Shown here piece after piece: positions 14,995 to 59,888 of a DNA stretch of 64,000 nt. The DNA is taken from assembly GCA_038065075.1 (NCBI GenBank), contig JBBTRQ010000011.1, forward strand, positions 5,924 to 69,923. Reading direction: 5' to 3'. The translations under genes and the position numbers were made by a program. The stretch comes from Patescibacteria group bacterium. Lineage in GTDB: Bacteria > Patescibacteriota > Patescibacteriia > UBA9934 > GWF2-40-263. The notes under the pieces are model-generated. The model was not told where the DNA came from. It saw only the letters and a program-made list of their open reading frames with translations, and did no database searches. Each line of letters starts with the position of its first letter. Within the stretch, counting starts at the first letter, position 1.

Positions 14995-15050
14995 TGTAAT
15001 ACCAGTAGATCGTTCCAACTTCACGTCTACAACGTGGTGTATCACTAATT

Positions 15051-15180: not shown

Positions 15181-15214
15181 TTCCCTCACTAACTTATTCA
15201 TCACATTCAGTCAT

Positions 15215-20693: not shown

Positions 20694-20694
20694 A

Positions 20695-22170: not shown

Positions 22171-22176
22171 AGAATT

Positions 22177-24579: not shown

Positions 24580-24668
24580 ATGTCCGAATTATGCCTGAAA
24601 AGAGCCTTATCTGCAATGAGTTTTTGTCCCTTTTGTTACCTACAAGTAGGGCTAGGCACCCAGGACAG

Positions 24669-24694
24669 ATGTGGCATTAATGTCCATGCCACAT
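24669..24694. promoter_or_regulatory. Perfect 9-bp inverted repeat ATGTGGCAT-n8-ATGCCACAT, 12 nt upstream of the recombinase start (candidate operator / recombinase-binding site)
   Basis: Read directly from the sequence. It lies in the divergent region between hsdR (-) and the recombinase (+). Confidence 0.4.
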
Positions 24695-24705
24695 AACGGC
24701 CATTT

Positions 24706-30643: not shown

Positions 30644-30720
30644 AGGGGCGTAGCTCAGTTGGTTAGAGCTCCGAGCTTATACCTCTGTGGTCGATGGTTC
30701 GACTCCATCCGCCCCTACCA
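30644..30720 (+). tRNA. tRNA with anticodon UAU (putative tRNA-Ile reading AUA); CCA encoded
   Basis: AGGGGCG-TA-GCTC-AGTTGGTTA-GAGC-T-CCGAG-CTTATAC-CTCTG-TGGTC-GATGG-TTCGACT-CCATC-CGCCCCT-A-CCA. There is one C.U mismatch in the anticodon stem, so identity should be confirmed with tRNAscan-SE. Confidence 0.6.
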
Positions 30721-36218: not shown

Positions 36219-36225
36219 AGGCGGG

Positions 36226-37158
36226 TTATCTGAGCGAATGATGGGCGTAGATTTTTTGGCCGAACACATGGACGCGTGCCCATCGAACGATCGAGAGTGG
36301 AAGGATGGAGGCGATGAAGGGTTTGAGAAGATAGATCGCGTTCCAGAGTGGATAGTCGCCTCGACGCAGAGCGCTCACGCGAGCACGTACGGCACAGCGT
36401 AGTTGTGCCCGCTCGCTCGCAAAGGAGATCATGTTTTTGACCAGACGTTTTTGCATGAGAACTTCAGGTAGGTTGGCCATGCGGCTTGTGCGTGAGAGCC
36501 TAAGCCAGAGATCGTAGTCTTGGGCGCGACGGTAGGATTCATCGTAGCCGTGCACGCGATCTAGCGTTGTGCGGCGTATCATCACGGAGCTGTGGAGCAG
36601 GGGATTGGTGCGCGGGAGCGTGCGGTGGATGTCATCGGGGTCGGTGATGACGTGTGGGCGGCCGATGACTCTGTCGTCTTCGTCGATCCACTCGTAGGCT
36701 GTTCCTACGACGTCGATGTCTGGATGTGTTTCTAGGAACGCGACTTGTTTCTCGAGTCGGTGAGGGAGGGCCACGTCATCCGCGTCCATGCGGGCGATGA
36801 AGTTGCCGCGCGCTTGTGCAAGGGCGATGTTGAGCGATTTCGTGAGCCCGAGGTTTGTGGGGTTGGTGATGACGCGGATATGGACATCTTGCGCGGCGAG
36901 CTCGCGCAGGATCTCCGACGTTGCGTCTGTTGAGGCGTCATCGATGATCAAGAATTCAAAATCACGGAAGGTCTGGTTCAGGAGGCTCTCGACCGCCTGG
37001 TGCACGAATCGCTCGGCATTATGGACGGATAGAAGGATGGAAATTTTTATGCGCGTGTTCACATGGGGATGGCTCAGATTGATGGAAAGATTAGTTGCAA
37101 GATACGATTCAATCTTTTTTTGAAAACATACAGGAGATGTCTTGTCTGATGTTTCCAT
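36226..37158 (-). CDS. Glycosyltransferase family 2
   Basis: ISILLSVHNAERFVHQAVESLLNQTFRDFEFLIIDDASTD (GT2 DxD region). The ATG at 37158 overlaps the upstream MTase by 85 nt, so a GTG at ~37062 is an alternative start. Confidence 0.8.
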   Translation of the reverse strand: METSDKTSPVCFQKKIESYLATNLSINLSHPHVNTRIKISILLSVHNAERFVHQAVESLLNQTFRDFEFLIIDDASTDATSEILRELAAQDVHIRVITNPTNLGLTKSLNIALAQARGNFIARMDADDVALPHRLEKQVAFLETHPDIDVVGTAYEWIDEDDRVIGRPHVITDPDDIHRTLPRTNPLLHSSVMIRRTTLDRVHGYDESYRRAQDYDLWLRLSRTSRMANLPEVLMQKRLVKNMISFASERAQLRCAVRARVSALRRGDYPLWNAIYLLKPFIASILPLSIVRWARVHVFGQKIYAHHSLR

Positions 37159-37979
37159 AGGGCTGTTTTAATCTTTCTCAGGCTTTCCTTTCGAAATTCC
37201 TTATGTTCTCCCGGTTTGGCAAGGACGCTGATCCCTCTGTCGGTTACTTCTTGTATGATCGTTTGGAAGCCAGTTTTTGAAAGGAGGTTTGTGATAGTTA
37301 TTGGTGTGAACATCATCATATGAATGCTAGAGAAATAGTCAAAAATGGTTCGATCCGCTCTCATTGAGAAGATATTCGGAACCTCGATGAATAGCACGCC
37401 ATGTTGGGATAATTTCGAGTGTACAGCATTCAGGAACACGACGGGATTTGTTGTGTGTTCAATTACGTGGAGCGCGATAATGAGATTAAATGTTTCGTTT
37501 TGGAAAGTTGTTTCATTGAAGAAGCCAGTCTGAATGTCTAAGCCGAGGTTTTCTCTAGCATATTGTGAGAGGGGGAAAGAAGGCTCCACACCACGCACAT
37601 TCCAACCTTCCTCTCGTAACGAATGAAGCAAAAAACCTGATGAGCTCCCAATTTCCAGAACGCTACCCCTTTCGTTTTTGTTGAGATGTTTCTGAAGCCA
37701 TGCTGTTTTTTTTTGGGCGTCGAGTTTCGAGCACTTGAAATATTTTCCTGATGTTTCTAACTCGAATTCTCCCTGTTTGTAAAATGCGTTTAATGACAGG
37801 TGGTCTGGCTGGGGATTTTGGAAGGCGAATCCACAATATTCGCACGAGACGTATTGGATATCAGCGCAGGCGATTTTTTTTATGTATCGATCTTTTTTGT
37901 GTCGTAATAATCGGCGTTGTTGTTTTGAATAACAGATCGGACAAGGCAAGTCTGTGTTCGTAGCTGGTTCAGCACACAT
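37074..37979 (-). CDS. Class I SAM-dependent methyltransferase with N-terminal Cys4 zinc-ribbon (sugar C-/O-methyltransferase-like, TcaB9-type N-domain)
   Basis: CPICYSKQQ...CEYCGFAF zinc ribbon. MTase motif I VLEIGSSSGFLLHSLREEGWNVRGVEPS. Confidence 0.7.
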   Translation of the reverse strand: MCAEPATNTDLPCPICYSKQQRRLLRHKKDRYIKKIACADIQYVSCEYCGFAFQNPQPDHLSLNAFYKQGEFELETSGKYFKCSKLDAQKKTAWLQKHLNKNERGSVLEIGSSSGFLLHSLREEGWNVRGVEPSFPLSQYARENLGLDIQTGFFNETTFQNETFNLIIALHVIEHTTNPVVFLNAVHSKLSQHGVLFIEVPNIFSMRADRTIFDYFSSIHMMMFTPITITNLLSKTGFQTIIQEVTDRGISVLAKPGEHKEFRKESLRKIKTALWKHQTRHLLYVFKKRLNRILQLIFPSI

Positions 37980-38098
37980 AGCTATTTTTGATTTCTCTTA
38001 GGAAGCAATAGAGATCCGTGGTGATTTAGGCTCCTTCCCGCTGTAGCTCTTTTTCACCTGAAGACGGACATGATGACAGAGATCGTCATGGCAGAATA

Positions 38099-39076
38099 TC
38101 AGATGATTTTGTTCACTCGCACACGTTCGCGCCACCTTACAAACGTCTTACTCAGCCAAGGAATACACATCTTCATGAGCACACGCATCGGGATACTATT
38201 CGCAATATACTTATAGAGAAATGCATCTCGATCATGCTGTCGTTTGTAGTTTTGAATGATTTTTTGGATGGTTTCGTGGTTGTCAGTTTGTGTCAATGTG
38301 TGTGGTTCAGTCATGCGGGCGAGGACGCAGATGCCTCGCGGAACGTGCCCTTGTGCCACGACGCGGAATCCGTGCTTAGCCAGAAGTCGGGTCAGAGACG
38401 TCTGGGAGAACGTATAGAGATGGGGTGCGGCAAAGTACGACGTATAGAACGCACTTTTGGGATGATAGATATCGGGAACTTCAACATAGAGATATCCGTC
38501 TGGACGCAGTACTTCGCGGATATCGGTGAGGATCTCTCCGGGATTTTCCAGGTGCTCGAGCGTGTGCAGGAGCGTGACCAGGTTAAACGTCTGGTCAGGA
38601 AAGGTGCCTTTTTGAAACAGTTGTATATGGATTTGTTCAAGATCGTAGTGCTTGCGCGCGATGTCGCTCATGTTCTTGGAGGGCTCTACGCCATGTCCTT
38701 CCCAACCCGCTTGGACAAAGAGTGACAGAAACGCACCGGTGTTACTTCCAATGTCGAGGACAGTGAATCCTGGCGATGGCTGTCGCACGGGAATCTGCCC
38801 GGCGATCCAATTAAATGACTGCGAGGCGTACTCATCCTTTTTCTGAATATATTTATCTGAGACGTTCTGCTCCGCGCGGTCGTAGTAATCGCGTGAATAC
38901 AGCGATTCGATTTCGTGCGATTCCAACTTCGGGTTTTGATACACAAATCCACAGTTCGTACAGATGTCGTAACATGTGTGTGTTGACCCGATCCGTTTTC
39001 CGAATGGGTCTTGGGTGTTCGTAAGAAGTCTCTCGCGCTGAGATCCCTCGCACAGTAAGCAAGTAACGTGTTTCAT
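38099..39076 (-). CDS. Zn-ribbon class I SAM methyltransferase (paralog 2)
   Basis: CLLCEGSQRE...CTNCGFVYQNP. VLDIGSNTGAFLSLFVQAGWEGHGVEPS. Confidence 0.7.
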   Translation of the reverse strand: MKHVTCLLCEGSQRERLLTNTQDPFGKRIGSTHTCYDICTNCGFVYQNPKLESHEIESLYSRDYYDRAEQNVSDKYIQKKDEYASQSFNWIAGQIPVRQPSPGFTVLDIGSNTGAFLSLFVQAGWEGHGVEPSKNMSDIARKHYDLEQIHIQLFQKGTFPDQTFNLVTLLHTLEHLENPGEILTDIREVLRPDGYLYVEVPDIYHPKSAFYTSYFAAPHLYTFSQTSLTRLLAKHGFRVVAQGHVPRGICVLARMTEPHTLTQTDNHETIQKIIQNYKRQHDRDAFLYKYIANSIPMRVLMKMCIPWLSKTFVRWRERVRVNKII

Positions 39077-40035
39077 AGCTCAGTTTTTGCGATTACATGC
39101 AGGTTATCCCCATAGCCAATCCAGTCGAGCAGACGGACGAGCGGTTTGAGGAGGAGATTAAGAAGGTGATGGCGACGAAGGCGACCATCCACGAGGGGAA
39201 CATGTAGGGCGTCACGCAGAAAATATTCGATGGATCCTGTCCAACCTTTCGTACTCGAGGCGGTGTAGAGATCGAGAACCTCGAAACCTTCTTCTTGAAG
39301 GAGTGTTCGCAAGGTGGAAGGGGAGAAGAGGAGGTTGTGGCGCGGAGCATCAAGGTTAAACCAGAAACTGCGAAATACTTGCGCAACCACACTCTGATTG
39401 GTTGGCATGTTTAGATACAGGATACCACCCTGTGTAAGAGCCTGTCGGGCATCTCGTAAGATTTGTCGTGGGTCCGTCAGATGTTCGAAGACTTGGTTGA
39501 GGACCACAACATCGAACGTCGGCTCCTTCCATTGCTCAGCAATCGAGAATCCTTGTCGAACATCCAGTCCCCAGCTGCGACTTTGTTCCACCATGGATTG
39601 ACTCGGCTCAAGACCAGAGACGTTCCAACCCAAGTGTTGTTGAGTGAGTAGAAATGTTCCCGCTCCACTCCCAACGTCGAGGAGCCGTTTCCCGTGCCCG
39701 AGCATTTTGAATGGCGTGTGACGGAAGAAGCCTGTTCGGCGGAACAGGCGGGAGAAGAACGAAGGATTTTGTTCCCAAGCACGCTCGCGTTCCTGCATGA
39801 GTCGAAGACGACGTGCGGTGTCCGATGGAACGCGTGGACGCTCCGCGACATGGGAGAGATACTGTGCGTCGTAGTGTTGGTCGTACGACTGAGAAGTTGT
39901 TTGCGGATGAAGGAAGGTGAGGCCGCACGTCAAACAACGATAATAGGCGTGGTGATCCAGAGGCTTGTTTCGCAGGCGGTCCTGGCAGGAGATCCATCGA
40001 CGCGCATTGGGGCTTTGGCAGGAAGGACAGATCAT
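39073..40035 (-). CDS. Zn-ribbon class I SAM methyltransferase (paralog 3)
   Basis: ICPSCQS...CLTCGLTFLHPQ. LLDVGSGAGTFLLTQQHLGWNVSGLEPS. Confidence 0.7.
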   Translation of the reverse strand: MICPSCQSPNARRWISCQDRLRNKPLDHHAYYRCLTCGLTFLHPQTTSQSYDQHYDAQYLSHVAERPRVPSDTARRLRLMQERERAWEQNPSFFSRLFRRTGFFRHTPFKMLGHGKRLLDVGSGAGTFLLTQQHLGWNVSGLEPSQSMVEQSRSWGLDVRQGFSIAEQWKEPTFDVVVLNQVFEHLTDPRQILRDARQALTQGGILYLNMPTNQSVVAQVFRSFWFNLDAPRHNLLFSPSTLRTLLQEEGFEVLDLYTASSTKGWTGSIEYFLRDALHVPLVDGRLRRHHLLNLLLKPLVRLLDWIGYGDNLHVIAKTEL

Positions 40036-41543
40036 AGGGATGTGCCGATCTCTTCCAAGGTGCTTGTCACCAAATGGACAGGATCGCTAGGGAGATTCAT
40101 GTAGTCTTTTAAGAAGGATTCCGCCTGTGCCGCGAGTTGATTGAGTACGGATGTTTGTGTGCTGGCTTCGAGTGTGTCGACGAGTTCGGAAATGGTATGA
40201 GCTCCAAGCCCGGCGCCTTGCGTGACCATTTCCATGTCCTGAATGCCATCGATGTTCAAAAGGATAACAGGAGTTTTCAAACGTGTCGCCTCTACGTGCA
40301 AGGTGGAGGAAGAGGTCACGAGGACCTCGCTCACTTGGATGAGATCGTACACGGTTTCTTTTGCTGAACGGATGAACACGTGTTCGTTTTCCTTGAGTCC
40401 AACCTGCGCAAGGAGTGCCTGATAAAAACCTGGAGTCGTATATGGACTCTTGGCTGGGTGAGGGGTGATGACGAGTTTGGTAGTCGGATGTTTTGCTTGG
40501 TGTTGGATAAATGCTTCAAGCATCATCCGCGCGAGAGCGGAATTTTTTTCACGGTCGAAATGCTGTCCAGAAAACAAGATGAACCCTCCTTCGGGAAGGG
40601 AGAAGCGCGAGCGAATTTCCTCCGGGCTCAAAGCAAGTGTGGGGTTGATCGAAGAAAGAGCAGGAGATCCCGTGACCCAGATGCGTTCCGGTTGTACTTT
40701 GTGCGCGAGGAAGTAACGTTTCGCGGCCTCGCCCCAGACGCATAGCCGGGAGGCAATCGAAGGTGTATTGACGACGAGATTTTTGACGGTCTCATTGGTG
40801 ACGCCGTGTTGGATCAGAATGGTTGGGATCTGACGCATGTTCGCCCGGGTGAACACACATCGTTCCATCGGGTGCATTTCCGTGGCGGATACAATGACTT
40901 GTTTCTGGTGGAGTCGGGTTCGCAATCGGGCGTTCAATGCGAGAAAGCGTGGAGCATGGAAGAAGAGGGTCGAGAGAGATAGGAGAATGTCTGCTCGCTG
41001 AGGAGAAACAAGCAAAGGCACGCTCGTTCGCCAGAGCATGGAAGCAAGCCGAATAATCTCGGAGAGATTGAGATGTGCTTGCCCGATATTTTCACATCGC
41101 CACGATGGGTACTGCGCGTGCAAGGCGACTCGTGCAGCTTCATCGAATGTCCAAATGGTAATGGTTTCCCCGCGGGTGTGCAGAGCTTCCATTACAGGCT
41201 GGAGGTGTTTGGCGATGGCTCCGTGGGGGACGGATTTTGCCATCAAAAAAACGTACTCACGGCCAGGAGGTTGTGGGGATTCCGCTTCGCGCGATCCCCA
41301 CAAACGCACACAGGCTTCGGTGCAGGAGATCATTGCTCGCAGGAGTGTTCCCCACGAGCCAGTCTGTTTATCATCGTCTTGCTTAGACAAAAAAACCGGC
41401 AGTCTCAGCAGGTGTCCAAAAGAGATGCCGTCGATGTCGGTGAGGTCCTTTCCGTCCGAGAGAAACCAGTGGTCCGCGAACTCACGACTCCTGGAGTCGC
41501 TCGCGTGTCGGGCGGATGCGTCAAAGGAGTTCGTGGCAGACAT
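40032..41543 (-). CDS. Hypothetical GT-B-fold-like transferase (possible TagB/TagF-type glycerophosphotransferase or capsule polysaccharide biosynthesis protein)
   Basis: 503 aa. Rossmann-like C-terminal half with VITPHPAKSP (HP motif as in TagF-family). No strong match otherwise. Confidence 0.35.
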   Translation of the reverse strand: MSATNSFDASARHASDSRSREFADHWFLSDGKDLTDIDGISFGHLLRLPVFLSKQDDDKQTGSWGTLLRAMISCTEACVRLWGSREAESPQPPGREYVFLMAKSVPHGAIAKHLQPVMEALHTRGETITIWTFDEAARVALHAQYPSWRCENIGQAHLNLSEIIRLASMLWRTSVPLLVSPQRADILLSLSTLFFHAPRFLALNARLRTRLHQKQVIVSATEMHPMERCVFTRANMRQIPTILIQHGVTNETVKNLVVNTPSIASRLCVWGEAAKRYFLAHKVQPERIWVTGSPALSSINPTLALSPEEIRSRFSLPEGGFILFSGQHFDREKNSALARMMLEAFIQHQAKHPTTKLVITPHPAKSPYTTPGFYQALLAQVGLKENEHVFIRSAKETVYDLIQVSEVLVTSSSTLHVEATRLKTPVILLNIDGIQDMEMVTQGAGLGAHTISELVDTLEASTQTSVLNQLAAQAESFLKDYMNLPSDPVHLVTSTLEEIGTSL

Positions 41544-41548
41544 AGTGC

Positions 41549-42250
41549 TTAGGGATGGATGTATCGATCACTCCACTCAGACAAGATGAGCTCCGCCAAT
41601 CGGAGTTCGTCGCGGGTATGGATATCGACCGTCATGTTGAGGTCGTCGAATTCATGAATCAAGATGTTTGGACCGAGGCGCTCGCCGCGAGCCATGAATG
41701 CGGCTCGTGTGCAGGTGATAAGACCACTATAGCAGATGTAGATTTGGTCGGGTTTGAGTTGTCGAACCGTGAATCCACTGTCGAGACGCTCCAAACCATG
41801 TTCGGTTTTTTTCCAAACAGACTTGTGTTCGTGCACACCGCTGATGACCGAGTCATATCCGCCTTCGAGCATCGCCGTGAGAGCCTCGTCCAAAAAAGTT
41901 GGTGGGCGCACGGGGCGGGTTGGGTCGACAAAACAAATGTACTCGACAGAAGGATCTTGCTCCAAGAGCCAGGTGGTCATGTAGGCGAACGTGTCTTCAA
42001 GTCGGGTGTGGTCTTCTACAAGATGTTCAGGCAAGAGGAAGGGGACTTCGGCGCCGTAGGTAGTCGCCACGTCGGCGATCTGTTGGTCATCGGTCGCCAT
42101 CAGAACACGTCCGATGTGTTTGGATTGTTTTGCTGCCTCAATCGCATACGCCATGAGCGGGTGGCCGTTTACGGGTTGGAGATTTTTTTTGGGAAGGCCC
42201 TTGGACCCCCCTCGTGCGGGAATGATGGCAACGATGTTTGGCATACTCAT
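41549..42250 (-). CDS. Acylneuraminate cytidylyltransferase family protein (CMP-ulosonic-acid synthetase; NeuA/KdsB/PseF-like)
   Basis: [40 protein letters not shown] (CTP_transf_3 N-terminus). 233 aa. Confidence 0.8.
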   Translation of the reverse strand: MSMPNIVAIIPARGGSKGLPKKNLQPVNGHPLMAYAIEAAKQSKHIGRVLMATDDQQIADVATTYGAEVPFLLPEHLVEDHTRLEDTFAYMTTWLLEQDPSVEYICFVDPTRPVRPPTFLDEALTAMLEGGYDSVISGVHEHKSVWKKTEHGLERLDSGFTVRQLKPDQIYICYSGLITCTRAAFMARGERLGPNILIHEFDDLNMTVDIHTRDELRLAELILSEWSDRYIHP

Positions 42251-43656
42251 AGGCCGATCTCATGTCGTTTAAGAAAGAGGTGTTTGGCCACTTCTCGTTC
42301 TGAAGGTTCTTGAATGTCTAGGAGGAGCACGGTGTGATCCATCGGAATAACGGCGACAGACTCACCCAAGCGCGACCCAGCCAGAATGAAGGGAAGCTTG
42401 GTAATGCACCCAAGGCCGGTGTATCCCATCCAGAGGGGATCCTTTTCGGAACGCTTAATAAAGCCGCTGTCCTTTCGGACCAGTCTTCCTTGGTCCAGGG
42501 CCCAGATTGCTCGATACTCTTTTTTGGCGACGAAGACCGAGTCGGCTTTTTCAATGAGGGCTTTTTTTACCAGCTCGTTGAGAAGTTCTGCCGTACGGAA
42601 TACATGCGTTGCTTTCACGAACAGGACATGACTGGGTTCGAAGGAGGTTGTTTCTTGGATGTGCGTCACACTCGCTCGCAAGACTTCCTCCAGAGAGGCC
42701 GAGGGTCCATCGAAGGTTGGTGTTTGGTAGCGAAAGACCGAGAATCCAAACGTGCTTGCGAGGTCCATGGCCGCGGCGTGCTTGGTAGCAACAACGACAT
42801 GCGTGAGTAAGTTCGCCCGAGCGATCTCCCCAAACACATGATCCAAGAACGAGTGATCTAAGCCAAGAGGTTTCTCCAGGAGAAGTTCCGCGTCCGCATC
42901 AGAAAGTGGCACGACGGTCAGAATACGCTGGACTCCATCGGAGGCAAGCTGTCGATCTAGGGCGTCAACACTTATTCCTGTCGGCTCAAGTTGTTCTAAG
43001 ATCGTGACGGTGGTTTGTGCGCGACTCGTGTTGCCATATTGGTGAATGCCATGATGGTGATAGACCCGAGCCTCTGGTTCGTACACGACAACGTACCCTG
43101 CTTCCTGAACGGCTTTCGTCCAGATGCGGTCTTCGATATTGGTCGCCTCCTCGTCAAAAGGAATTCGATCCCAGATATCTCGACGGATGATCGAGTTTGC
43201 GTTGTGAAAAAAGCTATCTTTGCGCTGGATTTTTTTCTCCGGTCCAAACGTAATAATGAGGTCGCGCTTATCAAACGGCGAGGACTCTGGGAGGGGAAGC
43301 TGGCGGCCGTAGACTCCAGCGATCTGTGGGTCCTCCGAGATGGTGCGAACCAATGTCTCAAGCCAAATGGAGTCTGTGGGTACGGCGTGCGCGGAAAGAA
43401 GGACGAGTAGTTCGCCATGGGAGGCACGGATTCCCGCGTTTAACGAAGCTCCCGGGCGATAGGGAGAAGCGTCGTATGGAAGAATTGTGCACGGAAAATT
43501 TTTGACGAGCTCGAGGGTCCGATCTGTGGAGCCGGAGTCAACGACAAGAATCTCGTAGTTTCGATACGTCTGGGATTCAATCGCACTTAACGTACGTGCC
43601 ACCCAGTCTTCCTCGTTTTTTGTTCGGATGATGATCGAAACCAGAGGTTGGCTCAT
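42247..43656 (-). CDS. Glycosyltransferase family 2 with C-terminal nucleotidyltransferase-like domain
   Basis: [40 protein letters not shown] (GT2). C-terminal ~200 aa ([10 protein letters not shown]...HVVVATKH...) resembles a cytidylyltransferase fold. Confidence 0.65.
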
Positions 43657-44579
43657 AGCGTTCTTCCAACGGCTGGGGCGATGGTTCGAAGATCAGTCAT
43701 CAACTGACCGAACATCTCGAAGTTGAGAGCTTGGAGCGGATCAACCCAGGCATGTTCTGGATCCGGGTGGACGTCGATCAGGAGGCCATCCGCTCCGGCG
43801 GCAATGGCGGCTCGACTCATGGCGCAGACATAGGAACGCTTGAAGGTTGAATGGCTTGGATCGGCAATAACCGGAATGGTTGGAGCGTACTCATTGAGCG
43901 CCACAATGGCCTGGATGTCCAAGATCGCTCGTGAGGAGACATTGTGCGTATGAGGAACCGCCACGCCGCGCTCGCAGATGACGAGGTTCTTTTTTCCACG
44001 AGCATAAAAATGTTCCACCATGCCAAGAAGGCTGCGAATGGATTCGCCGGCGTGGCGTTTGAGCAAAACCGGTTTGTCGCTTTCACACAGTCGGTAAAGG
44101 AGATCCATGTTAAACATGGATCGATAACCAACTTGGTACATGTCGGCGTACGGCTCCATGAGATCGATCGCTTCGGCAAAAGTTGGTTCTGAGACGATGG
44201 GAAGCCCGACGGATTTTCCAGCCTCGGCGAAATAGACAAATCGAGGTTCGGCCCGCTCAAGAACTTCCTTTTTGGAGAGGATGCGGGTTCGAGGCAAATC
44301 TTCACCGCCACTTCCTGCGTCAGAAAGGAGGAGGGGATCGCCGTAGGGGAAGGTGAGTGGTTTGAAGACGCCTCCGCGCAGGAGCGTGGCACCGGCAGCT
44401 TTCACCGCCTGAGCAATCGCGAAAACTTGGTCGCGACTTTCCACCGTGCAAGGACCGGCCATGACGCTTAGCGTCTTTCCACCCACTTCGGTATTTCCGA
44501 CTTGCACCGGACGTTTCTCACCCGCGACACTGCACAGGGGGATGTTATTTTTCAGGTCATTCTCACTCAAGTCTTTCAT
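43653..44579 (-). CDS. DAH7PS/KDO8PS-family (type Iβ) PEP-utilising aldolase with an altered phosphate-binding motif
   Basis: [27 protein letters not shown] (vs canonical KPRTSPYSFQG), [58 protein letters not shown]. Aligns along its length to P. furiosus/T. maritima DAH7PS, with a ~20-aa insertion after the KPxT motif. Confidence 0.8.
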
Positions 44580-45493
44580 AGGAGTTGTGAGGCGGTTTGC
44601 ATGAGGGAGTTAATCGTTTGGGAAGTCGGGATTCCTATACCTTGAAGCGTTTTTTCAAAAGCCATGACAGCTTGTTCGAGGTTCATTTCTTTTCCATTGA
44701 GGGTTTGTGCGCCGTGCGCTCGCGCGAGTCGCAACAAAGGTGTCTCTGGCGGTTGGTAGATGAGATCGAACACCCAGGTGTCTGGTTGCAGACGGCTCAT
44801 CGTCAAGCTTTCGATCGGGGAAAGGTCTTCTTGTCCGGATCCTTGGAAGCCCATGGTGGTCGCGTTCACGATGATGTCTGCCTGTGTGAGGGTCTCTTCT
44901 TGAATCGGCCATGTGACAACGGTCGTCGGACAAAGCTTCGAGGATTTTTGGGCAAAGACGTTGGCGGTTTCCTGCGTTCGATTCGCTACGAGGAGTGTGC
45001 CTGCAGATCCAAGCGCGCGAGCTAGATAGATCCCAACGGCTTGCCCAGCTCCTCCCAGACCCAGGAGCAGAACGGTCTTTCCCGCGAGGGAACCCACGTG
45101 GGACTCAAGACTTTTGATGGCGGCGGCCCCGTCCGTGTTGGCGCCGACGAGCTTTCCATCTTTGCGGTAGAGGGCATTCACCGCACCGATCAGACGCGCT
45201 TCTTCTTCCATGTCGTCCAGATAGGGGAGGATAGCTTGTTTATGGGGAGTGGTTATCGCGCCGCCGATGAAGCGAGGATCCCGTTTGAGTTCTGCCACGA
45301 TCTCGGACAAATCTTCTGAGTTCACGTCCATAGGATGCATGCGTGCGCTGACCCCGAGTCCTTCAAACGCGGCATTCCACAGTTTCGGTGAGCGTGCCCC
45401 CTGCGATGGTCGAGCGCCTAAAATGGCGGCATACAGCGCCGTGGCGTCCAACAAGAGGGACTCTCGATTTTGTACGCCGGAGAGGTTCATCAT
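44576..45493 (-). CDS. Shikimate/quinate 5-dehydrogenase (AroE) family protein
   Basis: [15 protein letters not shown] (SPxxHN-like substrate motif). Rossmann [19 protein letters not shown]. 305 aa. Confidence 0.75.
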
Positions 45494-45494
45494 A

Positions 45495-46568
45495 TTAGAG
45501 AGAACGATTTCCTAAACGAGAAGAACGTACATCCTCATTCACTTCAACCCAGCGATGTTCTTCCGTGCTCTTATAAAGGGCATGGACAATCCGAACACTC
45601 GCCAGCGCATCTTCCGCGCTGATGGGAGGATCGATACGGCCGTCATTGAGTCGGTTGAAAATTTCTTGAAGGAGTGGACCGTGAGAGAGGCCGTAGCCGG
45701 TCGGGACGTCTTGAGAATGTTGGGTGACAACGAGTTCATCACCTTCCTGTGACTCCGTGAATTGCCAGTGCACGATGTTGTTTAAGGCAATGCCGGCGAC
45801 TTGTGCAGATCCATGTTCGGCGACGATAGAGATCGAAGCCTCCTTATCCTCTGGTCGTGCCGCGGTCGTTACTTCAATCGTCCCGAGCCCGCCATTCTGG
45901 AATCGCACAAGCGCGACGGTTGTATCTTCTGCTTCAAGTTGGTTGAGGGCATTTTGTTGCGCGCTCACGACTTCTTGGATCGGACCACAAATCCACTGGA
46001 GGGCATCGATGTGATGGATGGCCTGCTGGCTAATGACGCCTCCGTCCATCGCCCACGTTCCGTGCCATCCATCTTGATAGTAGTCCTGGTAGCGGCACCA
46101 AATGAGTCGGATGCTTCCGAGGATAAGTTTTCCAAATCGTCCGGAATCCACAACCTCTTTGAGGTGAGCGATCGCGGGATTGAATCGATTCTGTTTTACC
46201 GCGGCGTACATGAGCCCCTTCTCTTTCGCTAGGGCGATGTTTTCCATGACTTCTTGCGCGATGAGGCCCACAGGTTTCTCGACGATGACATGCTTCCCAG
46301 CTTCAAGCGCCGCGCGCGCGTGCTGTGCGTGTTTACCTGACTCTGTCAGTACCAGAACAACGCTCACCTCTGGACTGGTGATGACCTCCTGTAGATCGTA
46401 CACCGCTCGAGCGCCCAGTCGCTTGGCCATGGTGTCAGCCTTTTCCTGAACGCGGTCACAGACCATAACAACGTTCACGCCATTCATTCCTCGCTCGAGG
46501 AATTGAGCGATGTGATTCGCGACGCGTCCGCATCCGAGAATACCTATCTGTTGCATAGTTTCAATCAA
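45495..46568 (-). CDS. Gfo/Idh/MocA-family NAD(P)-dependent oxidoreductase
   Basis: IGILGCGRVANHIAQFL (Rossmann), EKPVGLIAQEVMENIALAKEKG (EKP motif), C-terminal alpha/beta domain. Confidence 0.8.
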   Translation of the reverse strand: MIETMQQIGILGCGRVANHIAQFLERGMNGVNVVMVCDRVQEKADTMAKRLGARAVYDLQEVITSPEVSVVLVLTESGKHAQHARAALEAGKHVIVEKPVGLIAQEVMENIALAKEKGLMYAAVKQNRFNPAIAHLKEVVDSGRFGKLILGSIRLIWCRYQDYYQDGWHGTWAMDGGVISQQAIHHIDALQWICGPIQEVVSAQQNALNQLEAEDTTVALVRFQNGGLGTIEVTTAARPEDKEASISIVAEHGSAQVAGIALNNIVHWQFTESQEGDELVVTQHSQDVPTGYGLSHGPLLQEIFNRLNDGRIDPPISAEDALASVRIVHALYKSTEEHRWVEVNEDVRSSRLGNRSL

Positions 46569-46599
46569 GGGGAAGAACCCTTGTTTGCTTCGTCTCGCA

Positions 46600-46640
46600 A
46601 TAAAAAAGCAGGGTTATGTTGCCATAATCCCTGCTTTCGG
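46600..46640 (-). terminator. Rho-independent terminator after the ABC exporter gene
   Basis: On the minus strand: GCAGGGATTAT-ggcaac-ATAACCCTGC followed by TTTTTTATT. Confidence 0.5.
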
Positions 46641-46656
46641 TCAATGAAAACGCTGG

Positions 46657-48438
46657 TTATTCGATCGCGGCCATGCGCGAAAAATAGGAGTCAGGTTTAC
46701 GTAAGAGATCAGCTGGGGCGCCCTCCTCAACAATCTGACCATCGACAATAGCAAGAATACGATCGGCCATGCTGAGGGTGGAGAGTCGATGGGCCACCAT
46801 GATAATCGTTGTTGTTGATCCCTTCATGGACTCAATGACGCGCTTGAGCTGTTCTTGAGAGGCATTGTCCAGGGCGCTCGTTGCTTCATCCAGAATGAGG
46901 ACCTCGGGATGTTTTGCAAGGGCTCGTGCCAGAACAATGCGCTGGCGCTGACCCATGGAGAGGTTGATCCCTTGTTCTCCAACCTGGGCCTCCGATTGTT
47001 CGGGAAGGCGTGACACAAATTCATTTGCCTGAGCGAGATCAATCGCGCGCGCAACGTCTGCGGCCGTAACCGTTGGATCAAAGAAACGAATATTCTCCGT
47101 GATGGTTCCGTTCAGAAGGAAAAGATCCTGGGGGACATATCCCACGTTTTGCCTCCAGGCTTCTCGCGTAATTGTTCGGCTGTCCACGCCATCGACCAGA
47201 AGAGCCCCACGGGTTGGTGTGAGCAAACGAAGGAAGAGATTAATAAGCGTTGTTTTTCCAGATCCAGAGGGGCCGATGATGCCGAGCAACTCTCCCTTCT
47301 TCACAGAAAACGAAAGTCCACGCAGAGCGGCACCATTTTTTGGGTAGGAAAATTCGATCTGCTCGGCACGAATCTCTTTCTCAAAGAGAAACGTGTTCGT
47401 CCCATGATCCGTCGTGACGTGCTCCTGTGCGAGCTTCTGGGACGCGATACTGCTTTCCAGGTGAGGGAGAAGTTCACTCACTTTTTGGAGTTTCCCGAGA
47501 GTTCCTTCAATGTAAGAAAAGATTTGGTGAACGAGGTACACCATGACCGCAAAGACGCTGAATGTGAACCCAGGTTGTCGATACATGATTCCAAAAAGGG
47601 CTAACAAAAAAATGATCACGATGGGTTGGGCAAAAATTGTTCCAAGACCATGAAAGATATACAGCCGTCGCCGAGAGTGTTTCAAGGATTCAAAGAGATG
47701 GTTGGCTTGTTTCGTTAGTTCAGCAGGAACGGCACGTGTTTTAATCGACTTAATCCCAAGGAAAATTTGGTTTACAAAGTGACCAACGCGTTTGTTGTCT
47801 TCTGCAAAGCGACGCGCTGTTTTAGCCGTTTTCCGAAAGATCGGTTTGAACGTAAGAAAAAAGATGGCTCCCGCAATGAGAGCGATGAGGGTAATACGGG
47901 AAGAAATCGAAAAGGCGACAATAGAGTAGATACACAAGTTCGTGAGAGAGAGAATGAGCATGCTTACGACGCGCAGGAGGTTCGTTGCACCTGTGATATC
48001 AAGCGTCAGGGCTTTATCCAAGTATCCCATTTTTTCTCTCGAGAGAAACAGCCAGTCCGCGCCGAGCATCGAACCAAAGAGTCGCTCACGTTCTCGTCGT
48101 TCGTATTCGGAGGTGATTGAGGCACTGACGACCTGAAAGGCAAGCAAGACAAATGCTTTCAGAATGAACAGTCCGCCGATTAGGAAGAAAAGGATCCGCA
48201 AGGAAAGATCGGTCTGGAACAACTCGAAGAGGGAACGGACCGCTTCCATAATCAGACCACTTGTTTCCGGAACGTCTCCCAGAATGAATCCAAGAAATGG
48301 AATGAGGGCATTGATGCCGATTCCTTCCAAGACACCTCCGAGGAATCCAAGAGCAACCAATGCAGACAGCTCCCGTCGATAGGGACGGAACCCTCGGAGG
48401 ATGACGCGGATGAGATGAGGGGTCTTGAGGATGTTCAT
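46657..48438 (-). CDS. ABC exporter (fused TMD-NBD; MsbA/PglK-like lipid-linked glycan flippase candidate)
   Basis: 6-TM domain plus NBD with GPSGSGKTTL, LSMGQRQRIVLARAL, ILDEATSALD. Confidence 0.85.
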   Translation of the reverse strand: MNILKTPHLIRVILRGFRPYRRELSALVALGFLGGVLEGIGINALIPFLGFILGDVPETSGLIMEAVRSLFELFQTDLSLRILFFLIGGLFILKAFVLLAFQVVSASITSEYERRERERLFGSMLGADWLFLSREKMGYLDKALTLDITGATNLLRVVSMLILSLTNLCIYSIVAFSISSRITLIALIAGAIFFLTFKPIFRKTAKTARRFAEDNKRVGHFVNQIFLGIKSIKTRAVPAELTKQANHLFESLKHSRRRLYIFHGLGTIFAQPIVIIFLLALFGIMYRQPGFTFSVFAVMVYLVHQIFSYIEGTLGKLQKVSELLPHLESSIASQKLAQEHVTTDHGTNTFLFEKEIRAEQIEFSYPKNGAALRGLSFSVKKGELLGIIGPSGSGKTTLINLFLRLLTPTRGALLVDGVDSRTITREAWRQNVGYVPQDLFLLNGTITENIRFFDPTVTAADVARAIDLAQANEFVSRLPEQSEAQVGEQGINLSMGQRQRIVLARALAKHPEVLILDEATSALDNASQEQLKRVIESMKGSTTTIIMVAHRLSTLSMADRILAIVDGQIVEEGAPADLLRKPDSYFSRMAAIE

Positions 48439-48439
48439 A

Positions 48440-49520
48440 TTAGACGAGGATGTCTGGAATCGCTGTGAGCGTCGGATGGGGGAGTAAATGTTTCATGAGA
48501 CTCAGGCCCCAAAAGAACAGGACGGTCGCATGGATATCAGGTTCGTTCAACCCTCGAGTGACCCTCGCGCCGTAGTAGTGTCGGTTGGCGGCATCGCGAT
48601 GGAAGGAAAATCCTCCTACCTGTGCATGGTAGTACACCGACCACTCATGCAGGGTTTTCTCGCAGAACGCCTGAATCTCTTTGTGGCGATGCGTGCCTCC
48701 ACACCATTCGTTTGCGTATCGCAGCACGAGAATTTGATTGATCTGATCACAGGCATCATGTTGCGCTTGTGCGGGATTGGTGAGGCACAGATCGATGAGT
48801 GCCTTGGAATCTGGTGCTTGTGCACCGATAAGGGTCAAACCAGACAACACTTTCATCGCCCCGTTCACGCGCTGTCTGGCGCTGGGACTTCCGGTGTACC
48901 ACGATCCGTTTGTTTGTTGAATTCCCGTCAGGAAGGTTTGGATCGTCTGTACGGCTTGCGTGTAAGTGGTCTCGTCGATGGTTCCAGTATTACGCAATAG
49001 AGTAAGAAAGAAGAGCTGGTGACTCAGATGTGATCCAGCGCTCCAAGGATTGGTCCAGTCGAGGCTTGAGAGGTACGACGTCAGCTCATGTGAATCTGTT
49101 GTGACGGACAGGGGAATGAAATCGGGAAGGCGATCGTGAATCCAGAGCGCGGCGTACGCTTGGCGAGTTTCAGCGCGGATATAGTCTTCGTCGATGGAGC
49201 GTGGAAGCTGGCCGCGTTTGAGCGTGCCAAGGAATGTGCGGATGCGTCGTTTGCGCAAGACGAACGGATCGGCAAATGTCCCGTCTGACGATTGGAATGA
49301 AAGGACTCGTTGCGTGGTGTCCGCGATGAGATCTGGGTTCGTTACGCCGAGCAAATGAAACAGCTTGAGCGCAAAAATACTGCCCGCAAGATTTTGGCGG
49401 GTGTGTTCAGAGAAAATGTCACCTGTGAGCGAATAAGAAAAATAGTCAGGAGTAGCTGGATCCTGGAGACGGGAGAGAAACTCCCGCGCGCGCGGCTGTA
49501 TATCGTTGAGCCAATCCATA
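48440..49520 (-). CDS. Prenyltransferase/squalene-cyclase-like (alpha/alpha)6-barrel repeat protein
   Basis: Repeats QSSDGTFADPF, QQTNGSWYTG, QVGGFSF resemble PFTB/SQHop_cyclase Q-x2-DG-x-W/F repeats. The track ORF starts at TTG 49564; the first ATG at ~49520 abuts the upstream stop. Confidence 0.4.
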
Positions 49521-50636
49521 TCAGCGAAGAGGTGTCGTTTCCATGAGAGAAAAGAGTCGCTCAAGATAGTGATCCCATGTCAGATGAGCCAGGATCGTTT
49601 CATGACCTCGACGAGCCATGGTTTGAGCTTCATCAGGGGAGCCGACAATTCTGTCGATGGCATGTGTCAGGGCGTCCGGATCTTCTGGGGGGATAAACAG
49701 AACATTGTCTTGGTCTGTGAGGAAATAGCCGTGTTTGATCGCACCGGTCCGAGTCACAACGACCGGCTTCTCCATTGCCATACATTGTAGCAGGGTTGTT
49801 GTGGCCCCGGAGTAAGAATTGTTGTGAAGAGGTAATACGATGGCGCGTGCATTGGCGATGAAGGAAGGGATGTCTGCGAATGGTACGTCTGTCTTGAGGG
49901 TTATGTTTGGAGGGAGTTCGCTCCAACGGTCACGGAGCTTCTGCGCGTGCGCGGCGCTCGTGATGATAAGGAACGGTTCGCTCCGTCGCTGAGCCACTTC
50001 AACAAGTAAATCAAAATCTCGATGCGGATCAGCACCGATGGAGGTGATGGGTCCTTGCGAGGAAGTAGGACGTGGTTGAAACAGGCTCGTGTCGACACCA
50101 AACGGGAGAAAGTGGACCTTGAGTGAATCGTTGGCGAGAATGTCTTGGAGCCGTTGTGACTCTTCGTAGCCGTAGCACACGATGTGGGAAACTGTTTTTT
50201 GGAAGGCCCATCGGTATAGGCGACGCATGGGAGCACGCATTTTGTCCCAGCGTTCTGGGAGGCCGATGCTCATGTAGAGAATTGGTCGCGATGGAACAAG
50301 ACCGACGGCCATAAGAAGAACGAGGGGGATTCCTACGCGGTCAGCGGTTGAGATGATCAAGTCGGCGCGTGCGAGAGGCTTTCGGAGCGCAAGAATGTGA
50401 AACCAATTTCCTCCAGAACCTCCCATGGCAGACCAAATGTTATTGATCAATCTATCAATAACGTTCTCGATCCTCGTCCGTTTTGATCGATGATACAGAT
50501 CCGCATCGACTGTATGTCCAAAGCGATTCGCCTGGTCCATGCCATACCAGAGTGAAGCCTGTCCTCCATAGCGGTGACCAGGTTGTGCGATCGAGGTGCG
50601 GGACGTGGGATCTGGAAAAAGGTAGAACAATTTCAT
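49521..50636 (-). CDS. Glycosyltransferase (GT-B fold, GT4-like)
   Basis: C-terminal LLQCMAMEKPVVVTRTGAIKHG. 371 aa. Confidence 0.65.
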   Translation of the reverse strand: MKLFYLFPDPTSRTSIAQPGHRYGGQASLWYGMDQANRFGHTVDADLYHRSKRTRIENVIDRLINNIWSAMGGSGGNWFHILALRKPLARADLIISTADRVGIPLVLLMAVGLVPSRPILYMSIGLPERWDKMRAPMRRLYRWAFQKTVSHIVCYGYEESQRLQDILANDSLKVHFLPFGVDTSLFQPRPTSSQGPITSIGADPHRDFDLLVEVAQRRSEPFLIITSAAHAQKLRDRWSELPPNITLKTDVPFADIPSFIANARAIVLPLHNNSYSGATTTLLQCMAMEKPVVVTRTGAIKHGYFLTDQDNVLFIPPEDPDALTHAIDRIVGSPDEAQTMARRGHETILAHLTWDHYLERLFSLMETTPLR

Positions 50637-52342: not shown

Positions 52343-53362
52343 CTATGATACCCGATGGAGCTCCGCTTCGACCATCCTTTTTACGAGTTCTGGGAAAGCG
52401 ACAGATGGACGCCATCCTAGAAGTGTTTTGGCCTTTGTGGCGTCGCCTAAAATCGTATCGACTTCCGCCGGTCTGAAATATTGGGGGTCGATGGCCACGA
52501 GGGTTTTTCCCGTGGAGAGATTGAGACCAACTTCGTCGGTTCCTTCGCCCTGCCAGGTGATGTCCATCCCCACAACTCTGAATGCTTCCACGATGAACTC
52601 ACGGACGCTGTGGTTTTCTCCCGTGGCCAGGACAAAGTCATCTGCGAACGTATGTTGGAGGATCATCCACATACCCTTGGCACAGTCTCCCGCGTACCCC
52701 CAATCTCGTTTGGCATCCATGTTCCCGATGAGGAGCGGTTTTGTTCCACCTTTGCCGATCCGAGCAACCGCCATGGCAATTTTCCTTGTCACGAATTCTT
52801 TGCCGCGATGCTCAGACTCGTGATTGAAGAGGATGCCGTTGCTCATGAAGAGGTGATAGGCCTCGCGGTAATTTTTTACCGTCCAGAATCCTGCAAGTTT
52901 GGAAACGCCATAGGGACTGCGCGGGTAAAACGGTGTCAACTCATTTTGCGGAGTCTGCTGGACTTTCCCGTAGAGCTCAGAGGTTGCGGCGAAATAGAAT
53001 CGAGAATGTTTTGAGTATTCCTTGATCGCGTTGACGAAGTTCAACGTCCCCTCGATGTTGGTTTTGTAGGTGAGACTTGGATTGGTGAAACTCGCGCCTA
53101 CGAAACTCTGCGCCGCGAGATGGTAGATCTCGTCGTATTGTCCCTCACGGACGACCGAGTCCACGATCGTGTGATCTGTCACGTCACCCCATTGGATCGT
53201 GATCCGTTTAAGTTCGTCTTCACGCAGGGCATGGAGATTTCCCAGAGAGGCGGCACTGTTGCGTCGAACAAAGCCATGCACCTCGTACCCGAGGTCTAGG
53301 AGCCAACGTGAAAGAAAAAAACCGTCTTGGCCGGTGATTCCCGTGATGAGTGCTTTTTTCAT
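52343..53362 (-). CDS. gmd: GDP-mannose 4,6-dehydratase
   Basis: MKKALITGITGQDGFFLSRWLLDLGYEVHGFVRRNS...ATSELYG...YGVSKLAGFWTVKNYREAYHLFMSNGILFNHESEHRG, the GMD signature. Confidence 0.9.
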   Translation of the reverse strand: MKKALITGITGQDGFFLSRWLLDLGYEVHGFVRRNSAASLGNLHALREDELKRITIQWGDVTDHTIVDSVVREGQYDEIYHLAAQSFVGASFTNPSLTYKTNIEGTLNFVNAIKEYSKHSRFYFAATSELYGKVQQTPQNELTPFYPRSPYGVSKLAGFWTVKNYREAYHLFMSNGILFNHESEHRGKEFVTRKIAMAVARIGKGGTKPLLIGNMDAKRDWGYAGDCAKGMWMILQHTFADDFVLATGENHSVREFIVEAFRVVGMDITWQGEGTDEVGLNLSTGKTLVAIDPQYFRPAEVDTILGDATKAKTLLGWRPSVAFPELVKRMVEAELHRVS

Positions 53363-59883: not shown

Positions 59884-59888
59884 CGTTC

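Follow-up and report, generated by a model that had tools for sequence, protein, structure and literature searches.

What is an aldolase of the 3-deoxy-D-arabino-heptulosonate 7-phosphate synthase (DAH7PS) family, annotated everywhere as a shikimate-pathway enzyme, doing in a glycan-assembly locus beside a predicted cytidine monophosphate (CMP)-ulosonic-acid synthetase? This question is raised by five adjoining genes on a 64,000-nucleotide stretch of DNA from a Patescibacteria group bacterium (GenBank assembly GCA_038065075.1, contig JBBTRQ010000011.1, positions 5,924 to 69,923), hereafter called the window, in whose own numbering all positions are given. An initial annotation, made from the letters of the sequence, had suggested a glycan-directed pathway in which the aldolase condenses phosphoenolpyruvate (PEP) with an aldose, after which the product undergoes a redox step, is activated with CMP and is transferred. 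[quoted passage not shown] Our analysis points to a third type, one that arose by recruitment of a DAH7PS-lineage enzyme and is widespread in uncultured and in some cultured bacteria. The best explanation, which we consider probable, is that the five-gene cassette would make and activate an unusual acidic sugar for a surface glycan by means of a DAH7PS-family synthase.

The cassette consists of five co-directional open reading frames (ORFs) running from 46568 to 41549 on the minus strand, and the ORF listing bears out the positions, common direction and overlaps first given for them. In order, they encode a Gfo/Idh/MocA NAD(P) oxidoreductase (45495-46568; 357 amino acids, TTG start; Pfam GFO_IDH_MocA plus C-terminal domains), hereafter Gfo; an AroE-like NAD(P) dehydrogenase of the shikimate/quinate dehydrogenase family (44576-45493; 305 amino acids; Shikimate_dh_N and Shikimate_DH); the DAH7PS-family PEP aldolase, the predicted ulosonic-acid synthase (43653-44579; 308 amino acids; DAHP_synth_1, PF00793, E = 8e-37); a fusion of a glycosyltransferase family 2 (GT2)-like domain with a CMP-ulosonate-synthetase fold (42247-43656; 469 amino acids; Glycos_transf_2 and NTP_transf_3); and a NeuA/PseF-like cytidylyltransferase, the predicted CMP-ulosonic-acid synthetase (41549-42250; 233 amino acids; CTP_transf_3, 79 bits). 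Genes overlap by 4 bp at 42247-42250, 43653-43656 and 44576-44579 and the remaining junctions are gaps of 1-6 bp, so that the cassette looks like a translationally coupled operon. As had been reported initially, none of the other shikimate-pathway genes (aroB, aroQ, aroK, aroA, aroC) was found in a Pfam scan of every plausible ORF in the window.

Residues 19-307 of the aldolase align with the DAH7PS model NF006421, and the enzyme scored below every curated DAH7PS cut-off, with 258 bits for NF006421 (cut-off 335), 220 for TIGR01361 (268) and 178 for NF009239 (279). Models of 3-deoxy-D-manno-octulosonate 8-phosphate synthase (KDO8PS) gave 46-75 bits against cut-offs of 242-457 (the best being 75 against 242), the PseI model gave 16 bits against 340, and the NeuB domain PF03102 was not matched at E<=0.01 in Pfam. 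In a Foldseek search, an AlphaFold model of the aldolase (predicted local distance difference test score, pLDDT, 89.8) was closest to type I-beta DAH7PS (1vs1, 4c1k and 3pg8), with template modelling (TM) scores of 0.86-0.89 of the target and 31-40% identity, which agrees with the type first assigned; KDO8PS was the second-best fold match and clearly more distant.

The metal ligands are kept, as the initial annotation had stated, and the Cys of GPC is one of them, but the His does not lie in HPDPEH, nor the Asp in DPSH. The set consists of C44 (GPC), H243 (DPSH), D269 (IDVHP; Glu in most homologues) and D280 (AWVD). These ligands are 199 (170 plus 29 inserted), 26 and 11 residues apart, in agreement with the canonical Cys-170-His-26-Glu-11-Asp of Pyrococcus furiosus and Thermotoga maritima numbering, on which the ligand assignment is based. 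C44, R68, K73, K174, R175, R204, H243 and D280 are invariant in the homologues of the aldolase, and across 37-57 homologues the PEP-binding residues R68, K73, K174 and R204 and the metal ligands are invariant or conservatively substituted. The catalytic machinery is predicted to be intact.

Direct alignment with three canonical aroF proteins upheld the replacement of KPRTSP by KPLTFP that had first drawn attention to the enzyme. KPLTF is found in all 57 subfamily sequences (once as KPLSF), as opposed to KPRTS in the three canonical proteins, so the change from KPRTSPY to KPLTFPY marks the whole subfamily. Also subfamily-wide are the changes from GI-RTF to GxxxPHTH, from AL(C/S)DG to A(W/A)VDPL, with VDPLQAL belonging to the signature, and from a regulatory or short N-terminus to MKDIS..D...N.PL. 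In most lineages KRG has become KRH and DPSHAxGK has become DPSHxTF(K/R)R; the alphaproteobacterial orthologue has KRG and DPSHATFWQ at these places. The subfamily signature can be written as L75, F77, H176, H210-T211-H212, T245-F246, W278/VDPL and an N-terminal MKD..D..N. A further change, from GAR to GYR, is limited to homologues of 57-92% identity. The insertion of about 20 residues noted initially after the KPLTFP motif is present (about 21 residues in the beta2-alpha2 loop, with none in canonical enzymes); it is likewise confined to this tier, and homologues of the 43-51% identity tier have KPLTFPY without it, so we rejected it as a family-defining feature.

A sequencing artefact was also rejected as the source of KPLTFPY, since hundreds of orthologues share the motif and an independently made assembly of this contig (ENA ERZ1286166, contig_5401) has identical DNA coding for it. 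Compared over window positions 43072-46840, that copy has 8 single-base homopolymer indels and zero mismatches, and the aldolase, the AroE-like gene and others are fragmented there; the window is the corrected version. Neighbour-joining placed the 57 subfamily sequences together in one clade apart from the canonical aroF proteins, to which their mean identity is 38-44%, although with only three canonical sequences the sampling is small. On these alignments the aldolase belongs to a distinct and strongly conserved clade of the DAH7PS family. The orthologue of Thalassobaculum sp. OXR-137 (CP139715.1; L069:8068-8991) has GPN in place of GPC and keeps KPLTFPY and HTH. A Cys/Asn switch of this kind separates metal-dependent from metal-independent KDO8P synthases.

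The gene neighbourhood of the subfamily was examined in individual loci (numbered L001 onward). A pattern scan in which each GTDB species was represented by a single genome yielded 59 loci from more than 12 phyla, including groups of the candidate phyla radiation (CPR), Thermodesulfobacteriota, Omnitrophota, Elusimicrobiota, Chloroflexota, Acidobacteriota, Planctomycetota, Gemmatimonadota, Nitrospinota, Nitrospirota, Campylobacterota, Myxococcota and others. The cassette is also present in Alphaproteobacteria. Homologues of the aldolase form at least 120 clusters at >=60% identity in a large protein database. Linkage was counted in the 39 loci with at least 5 kb of flank on both sides, with a partner required to lie on the same strand within 6 kb. 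By this count, the cytidylyltransferase accompanies the aldolase in 34/39 loci, the GT2 domain in 33, Gfo in 31 and the AroE-like enzyme in 29, with 4 more in which it is fused to Gfo. A haloacid dehalogenase (HAD)-phosphatase motif occurred in 1/39, so that there is no conserved phosphatase. Every annotated neighbourhood examined (seven loci) was a glycan locus with flippases, Wzy, GT4 and GT2 proteins, and none of the seven contained shikimate or aromatic amino-acid genes. By comparison, the canonical aroF of Ilyobacter lies in an aromatic amino-acid operon with prephenate dehydrogenase, aroA and chorismate mutase.

The closest relatives of the cassette proteins come from metagenome-assembled genomes of Candidatus Uhrbacteria and Parcubacteria. 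Cultured carriers are Desulfovibrio mangrovi, Desulfatibacillum aliphaticivorans and Thalassobaculum sp. OXR-137, and relatives of the AroE-like enzyme are also found in Azospirillum halopraeferens and strain BAL199. A tblastn search of plasmids with the aldolase returned only canonical aroF, at <=41% identity. In the explanation that we favour, the cassette would be a self-contained unit that has spread horizontally. One locus labelled 'uncultured Gammaproteobacteria' (L004, CAZELN010000020.1) encodes an aldolase 86% identical to that of the window and is fully syntenic with Candidatus Uhrbacteria loci; its label is probably a binning or labelling error.

The cytidylyltransferase matches the PseF model TIGR03584 over its full length (118.6 bits, cut-off 205.7), whereas KdsB models match only its N-terminal ~70 residues. 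Its best match in the Protein Data Bank (PDB) is the NeuA structure 9ftb, and its CTP-binding 'IIPARGGSKGLPKKN' loop is intact. The neighbouring fusion protein has a GT-A domain at about residues 1-205 and a CMP-ulosonate-synthetase-fold domain at about residues 240-469; in Thalassobaculum and in the lower-identity tier, each half has a gene of its own. Conservation of the GT-A domain between phyla is unusually high. It has no DxD motif: S88-A89-H90 aligns with the D-C-D of chondroitin polymerase at that position, S88 and H90 are invariant in 34 homologues, and E175-D176, putatively catalytic, are kept. The C-terminal domain superposes on CMP-Kdn and CMP-Neu5Ac synthetases (TM about 0.8 of the target, root-mean-square deviation about 3 A). 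It has lost the acidic Mg-binding motif, and it lacks the PARxxSK...KN CTP-binding loop, which is replaced in the Uhrbacteria clade and bears an 8-residue deletion in 35 other homologues. The GT2 and second nucleotidyltransferase-like domains reported initially are therefore both present, but the former is without DxD and the latter is, to judge from these losses, catalytically dead; with its CTP loop deleted or replaced, we rejected it as a second active enzyme. The dead synthetase fold is probably a binding module for the acid or its CMP derivative, and a donor with a single phosphate (CMP) would be compatible with the missing DxD. A role of the GT2 domain as a UDP-sugar hydrolase, analogous to PseG or NeuC, was also considered; it is weakened by the missing DxD and by the co-occurrence of the fusion with a genuine NeuC-like Epimerase_2 protein in NeuB clusters.

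The fusion family has more than 2,000 members, and some of them provide the strongest single argument for the role of the aldolase. Two members of about 40% identity (L064 and L065) lie beside CTP_transf_3 genes in NeuB-type clusters without a DAH7PS-like gene. One of these clusters comprises NeuB, a DegT aminotransferase, Epimerase_2, a PglD-like acetyltransferase, a formyltransferase and a Maf-like protein; the other comprises CTP_transf_3, a 2-hydroxyacid dehydrogenase and NeuB. In the cluster of a third member (P0133), a short-chain dehydrogenase/reductase (SDR) and a Gfo enzyme stand beside CTP_transf_3. These neighbourhoods mark the cytidylyltransferase and the GT2 fusion, with or without a methyltransferase, as a general CMP-ulosonic-acid module, and the fusion of a GT2 domain without DxD to a dead synthetase appears to be an uncharacterised general component of NeuB-type clusters. 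Because the same module carries NeuB elsewhere and a DAH7PS-like enzyme here, the aldolase would fill the NeuB slot. Together with the 59 loci and their glycan context, this gives genomic support to the glycan-directed CMP-ulosonic-acid pathway with a DAH7PS-family synthase that had been proposed. It is likely that the cassette serves glycan-directed sugar-acid synthesis rather than the shikimate pathway.

The two dehydrogenases also stand apart from characterised families. Gfo scored below all NCBIfam cut-offs (best iolG, 127 against 355) and is 51% identical to its Desulfovibrio mangrovi orthologue. Its best solved relatives are 3q2k and 3q2i (205 bits; next match 91 bits), presumably WlbA, a UDP-N-acetylglucosaminuronic acid 3-dehydrogenase. 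WlbA is a nucleotide-sugar dehydrogenase of the Gfo/Idh/MocA family (PMC13656337). The AroE-like enzyme scored 180 bits with TIGR00507 (cut-off 200) and fell below the cut-off of every other AroE/YdiB model as well. Its catalytic Lys (TPHK) and Asp (NTDG) align with those of solved AroE (shikimate dehydrogenase, EC 1.1.1.25) and are conserved in 48 homologues, and in the SxS motif the first Ser has become Ala ('HSLSP' to 'GARSP'). The third-best PDB match is 7cok, a 5-ketofructose reductase and thus a sugar-acting member of the family. In four genomes (L031, L033, L036 and L038) Gfo and the AroE-like enzyme are fused into one protein of about 730 amino acids, which argues that they act together.

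At the same operon position, the pair is replaced by IolO-like and IolB-like enzymes in at least 4 loci from three phyla (L010/L063, Dehalococcoidaceae; L015/L062, Elusimicrobia; L020, Myxococcia). The IolO-like protein scored 297 bits against a cut-off of 300 for 5-keto-L-gluconate epimerase, with TM0416 as its PDB match, and the IolB-like protein scored 192 against 205 for 5-deoxy-glucuronate isomerase and matches an IolB-like structure. IolO and IolB chemistries need an alpha-hydroxy carbonyl, and the known members act on uronate or keto-aldonate acids. A 3-deoxy-2-ulosonic acid has no alpha-hydroxy carbonyl or second carbonyl, so such enzymes should not be able to act on it. Because the pair can be exchanged for them, we favour, though not strongly, precursor supply before condensation over epimerisation after activation. 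The initial order of events, PEP condensation followed by redox and CMP activation, may therefore need revision: the idea of the pathway is supported, but the redox pair may act before condensation.

The pathway that we propose would begin with Gfo and the AroE-like enzyme as a coupled redox pair on a carboxylate-bearing sugar, most likely turning a common precursor into the aldehyde for the aldolase and less likely epimerising the product. The aldolase would then condense PEP with this aldehyde, which would not be erythrose 4-phosphate and is probably unphosphorylated, to give an acid of the 3-deoxy-2-ulosonic type. It would thus play the part that NeuB plays in nonulosonic-acid clusters and KdsA in the Kdo pathway. 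From its motifs, the NeuA/PseF-like cytidylyltransferase is predicted to make the CMP derivative of the acid. The least certain step is that of the GT2 fusion, which may modify this CMP-sugar or else transfer it to a conserved acceptor. A GT-B-like protein, methyltransferases, other glycosyltransferases, Wzy-like proteins and an adenosine triphosphate-binding cassette (ABC) exporter of the same locus would build the glycan, decorate it and carry it out of the cell.

We have little confidence in any particular substrate or product. In the Kdo pathway the KdsD isomerase generates the aldehyde for KdsA, and by this parallel a front end of Gfo and AroE-like or of IolO- and IolB-like enzymes fits the preparation of an aldehyde. 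One tentative candidate, to which we give a modest chance, is an aldehyde-acid of the uronate type, with a terminal carboxylate where erythrose 4-phosphate or arabinose 5-phosphate has its phosphate; speculatively, it would be prepared by the Gfo and AroE-like pair or by an epimerase and isomerase pair of IolO and IolB type. A carboxylated aldehyde would fit both the rebuilt anion site and the missing phosphatase, and the product would be a 3-deoxy-2-ulosaric (dicarboxylic) acid in CMP-linked form, of the type of 3-deoxy-lyxo-heptulosaric acid (Dha). Dha is the one familiar sugar of this class, and both its synthesis and its activated form are listed as unknown (PMC12168206). If correct, this would be the first route by which any organism is known to make an ulosaric acid. 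The 'higher-carbon CMP-ulosonic acids' of Magnetospirillum (SugarBase) were also considered as a product; no genes have been assigned to these diacetamido C10 acids, and we claim no link.

Several observations weigh against the proposed pathway. In the 43-51% identity tier, a divergent NeuB-like paralogue (TIGR03569, 190 against 400) is encoded in the same operon, between the AroE-like and GT2 genes (L052:11962-13020, L046:11901-12935, L032:11860-12990, L041:14780-15877 and L035:11934-13028). In this tier the DAH7PS-like enzyme might not be the sole or final condensing enzyme, and the two PEP-condensing enzymes may serve one pathway or two. Thalassobaculum has only a 164-amino-acid SAF-like remnant at the corresponding position. 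As the window's own tier is without the NeuB-like gene, this complication leaves the reading of the window locus untouched. That the KPRTS loop has lost Arg and Ser is no proof of an unphosphorylated substrate, since phosphate could be bound by the new His, Lys and Arg residues. The role given to the GT2 fusion is guesswork. Finally, the ElaA/ElaC precedent (PMC13656337) would point, by analogy, to a redox pair acting on the CMP-sugar.

This last point leads to an alternative that we regard as possible but less likely: Gfo and the AroE-like enzyme would act after activation, oxidising a hydroxyl of the CMP-ulosonic acid and reducing it again from the opposite face, as an epimerase like ElaA/ElaC. 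ElaA (Gfo/Idh/MocA), ElaC (reductase) and ElaB (CTP-transferase) form such a cassette for 8-epi-legionaminic acid (PMC13656337). Fusion of Gfo to the AroE-like enzyme fits consecutive oxidation and reduction of one substrate, the pyranose form of an ulosonic acid would resemble quinate, a substrate type of the AroE family, and the absence of the pair from some clusters is what one would expect of optional tailoring. The P0133 cluster, with its SDR and Gfo beside CTP_transf_3 and a GT2 fusion, points the same way. Set against these points, however, are the replacement of the pair by IolO- and IolB-like enzymes, whose chemistries could not act on a 3-deoxy-2-ulosonic acid lacking a second carbonyl, the lack of BLAST-detectable similarity between the cassette Gfo and the Gfo of the NeuB-type cluster L064, and a reductase that is AroE-like rather than an SDR. 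A second alternative concerns the fate of the CMP-activated acid, which the GT2 fusion might put on a lipid, a protein or another nucleotide sugar as a head group or modifier. The lack of DxD in a GT2 domain fused to a ligand-binding pseudo-enzyme would suit this, and the unusual conservation of that domain across phyla implies a small conserved acceptor rather than variable glycans. Nevertheless, the neighbourhoods are consistently poly- or oligosaccharide assembly loci with flippases, Wzy and several glycosyltransferases, and in several loci the cassette is followed by sialyltransferase-like or GT-B proteins, so that we consider this unlikely.

The remaining alternatives assign the aldolase to a known pathway. 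If it were a functional analogue of KDO8PS, the cassette would make CMP-Kdo or a close derivative. The two enzymes share a superfamily, KDO8PS is the second-best fold match, the Thalassobaculum orthologue has a KDO8PS-like Cys-to-Asn metal switch, and Kdo-containing capsules and glycans exist. Yet the KDO8PS models remained far below their cut-offs and there is no KANRS-type phosphate loop; a KdsC-like phosphatase is not conserved (1/39 loci), no KdsD-type arabinose-5-phosphate isomerase was found among the Pfam-annotated neighbours of the seven loci or in the window, and the cytidylyltransferase matches PseF/NeuA along its full length but KdsB only N-terminally. These points make a Kdo route quite improbable. 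We judge it still more improbable that the cassette holds an ordinary aroF and aroE for aromatic amino acids whose position in a glycan locus is coincidental. DAH7PS and shikimate dehydrogenase are indeed the best family matches, public annotations agree with them, and the catalytic residues of both enzymes are intact. But both proteins fall below all curated cut-offs, the motif for the phosphate of erythrose 4-phosphate is altered across the aldolase family, and neither the window nor any annotated neighbourhood contains aroB, aroQ, aroK, aroA or aroC. Moreover, the linkage to a cytidylyltransferase in 34 of 39 loci from more than 12 phyla differs from the canonical aroF context, and CPR bacteria, the hosts of the closest relatives, are generally without amino-acid biosynthesis. 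Hardly credible, in our view, is a secondary-metabolite route such as an aminoshikimate pathway like that to 3-amino-5-hydroxybenzoic acid (AHBA). It is brought to mind by the rifamycin cluster, in which RifH (a DAH7P synthase), RifI (AroE-like) and RifL (Gfo/Idh/MocA) co-occur, and a model of BagF/FevY-type DAH7PS matches the aldolase at 184 bits. That model has a cut-off of 700, however, and no homologue of an aminotransferase/AHBA synthase, dehydroquinate synthase or dehydratase was found in the cassette, the window or the related loci; the constant partners are a cytidylyltransferase and a GT-A domain in a glycan-assembly context. Gene content and linkage led us to reject this reading and the plain shikimate one alike.

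The operon lies inside a glycan-assembly locus that extends between about 32.9 kb and the window's end and contains, according to Pfam, GT4 and GT2 enzymes, four Wzy_C-like membrane proteins, a GDP-mannose 4,6-dehydratase and more methyltransferases. Directly after the cytidylyltransferase gene follows one for a GT-B-like protein of 503 amino acids (40032-41543, minus strand), which is syntenic in the CPR loci L003-L008. It has weak matches to Epimerase_2 (34.9 bits), Glyphos_transf and Glycos_transf_1, matches NF046086 (BFO_1060-family glycosyltransferase, 48 bits) and TIGR04396 (30 bits) below their cut-offs, and found no solved relative in a PDB sequence search. It is a candidate transferase for the activated acid. 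Three paralogous S-adenosylmethionine-dependent methyltransferases of 301, 325 and 320 amino acids (37074-40035, minus strand; Methyltransf_23/11/12 for 39073-40035) are also syntenic in L003-L008, and in L001, L064 and the P0133 locus methyltransferases likewise come after the GT2 fusion; they may O-methylate the acid or the glycan. Directly upstream of the cassette, an ABC exporter with fused transmembrane and ATPase domains (46657-48438, minus strand; 593 amino acids; ABC_membrane and ABC_tran) is syntenic in L003-L006 and adjoins the cassette in L013, L019, L026, L056 and L070. The adjacent gene (48440-49564, minus strand) encodes a conserved 374-amino-acid protein without a Pfam or NCBIfam match that is syntenic with the cassette in L003-L008.

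Other features of the window were recorded in passing. A GDP-mannose 4,6-dehydratase and an SDR epimerase/reductase (52343-53362 and 56915-57898) represent a separate 6-deoxyhexose branch for the same glycan locus. The four Wzy_C/O-antigen-ligase-like membrane proteins (34071-36269, 57928-59883, 59880-61862 and 61859-63856) have 650-730 amino acids each and are unusual in their multiplicity; at least 2 of them have C-terminal tetratricopeptide (TPR) repeats. A probable mobile defence island at 18516-26037, with a GC content of 0.45-0.50 against about 0.53, holds a complete type I restriction-modification system (HsdS, HsdM, HsdR) along with genes for a PIN-domain protein and a serine recombinase. 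Genes of defence or mobile-element type at 11694-16597 encode an AAA_21/AbiEii-like ATPase, a LexA-like repressor (S24 peptidase) and a fusion of a ParB N-terminal domain with an N6-N4 DNA methylase. At 30644-30720 there is a tRNA-Ile with the anticodon TAT (ARAGORN and Rfam agree on a tRNA), which is unusual, as bacteria normally read AUA by a lysidine-modified CAT tRNA.

A full-text literature search found no description of a cassette combining DAH7PS-like, AroE-like and cytidylyltransferase genes, although such absence is no proof. What would be new here is a CMP-ulosonic-acid pathway built on a synthase of the DAH7PS lineage with an AroE-like partner; the type of pathway is itself known. 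If the proposal is true, it would add a new acidic sugar or sugar class to bacterial surfaces, including those of CPR bacteria, about whose envelopes next to nothing is known. It would also correct a systematic misannotation, as 'aroF' and 'aroE' calls inflate the predicted aromatic amino-acid capacity of genome-reduced lineages. Furthermore, it would put forward candidate genes for CMP-linked alpha-keto acids that mass spectrometry has revealed and that are still unassigned (bioRxiv 10.64898/2026.04.20.719630), and provide a natural example of an aldose-phosphate site rebuilt within this aldolase family.

Among known systems, type I-beta DAH7PS (EC 2.5.1.54; Thermotoga, Pyrococcus, Aeropyrum and Bacillus) shares with the aldolase the TIM barrel, the metal-ligand set and the PEP-binding Arg and Lys residues. 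It differs in having KPRTS, RTF, KRG and ALxDG where the aldolase has KPLTF, PHTH, KRH and A(W/A)VDPL, and in its N-terminus; the aldolase, moreover, is never beside shikimate genes and almost always beside a CMP-sugar synthetase. The resemblance to inositol and uronate catabolism lies in Gfo, whose best NCBIfam model is IolG, and in the alternative front-end enzymes, which come near the thresholds for IolO (TM0416) and IolB, whereas the setting of the cassette is that of a biosynthetic glycan locus and other inositol-catabolic genes are absent from the annotated neighbourhoods. With ElaA/ElaB/ElaC, the CMP-legionaminic acid 8-epimerase system of Acinetobacter baumannii KL49 (PMC13656337), the cassette shares the combination of a Gfo/Idh/MocA oxidase, an NAD(P)H reductase and a CTP-transferase, but its reductase is AroE-like rather than an SDR; because its pair can be swapped for IolO- and IolB-like enzymes, a different substrate stage is suggested. 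The Kdo pathway (KdsD, KdsA, KdsC, KdsB) has a synthase of the same superfamily, and a Cys/Asn metal switch occurs in both families; unlike that pathway, the cassette has no phosphatase, no KANRS loop and a cytidylyltransferase of NeuA/PseF rather than KdsB type. Clusters with NeuB/PseI/LegI and NeuA/PseF/LegF resemble the proposed pathway in the condensation of PEP with an aldose, the lack of a phosphatase, CMP activation and a surface glycan as destination, and they contain the same type of cytidylyltransferase and the same fusion of GT2 and pseudo-synthetase. In contrast to these clusters, the cassette has a condensing enzyme of the DAH7PS/KDO8PS family instead of PF03102, includes an AroE-like dehydrogenase, and is without the hexose branch derived from UDP-N-acetylglucosamine (dehydratase, aminotransferase, acetyltransferase and hydrolysing epimerase).

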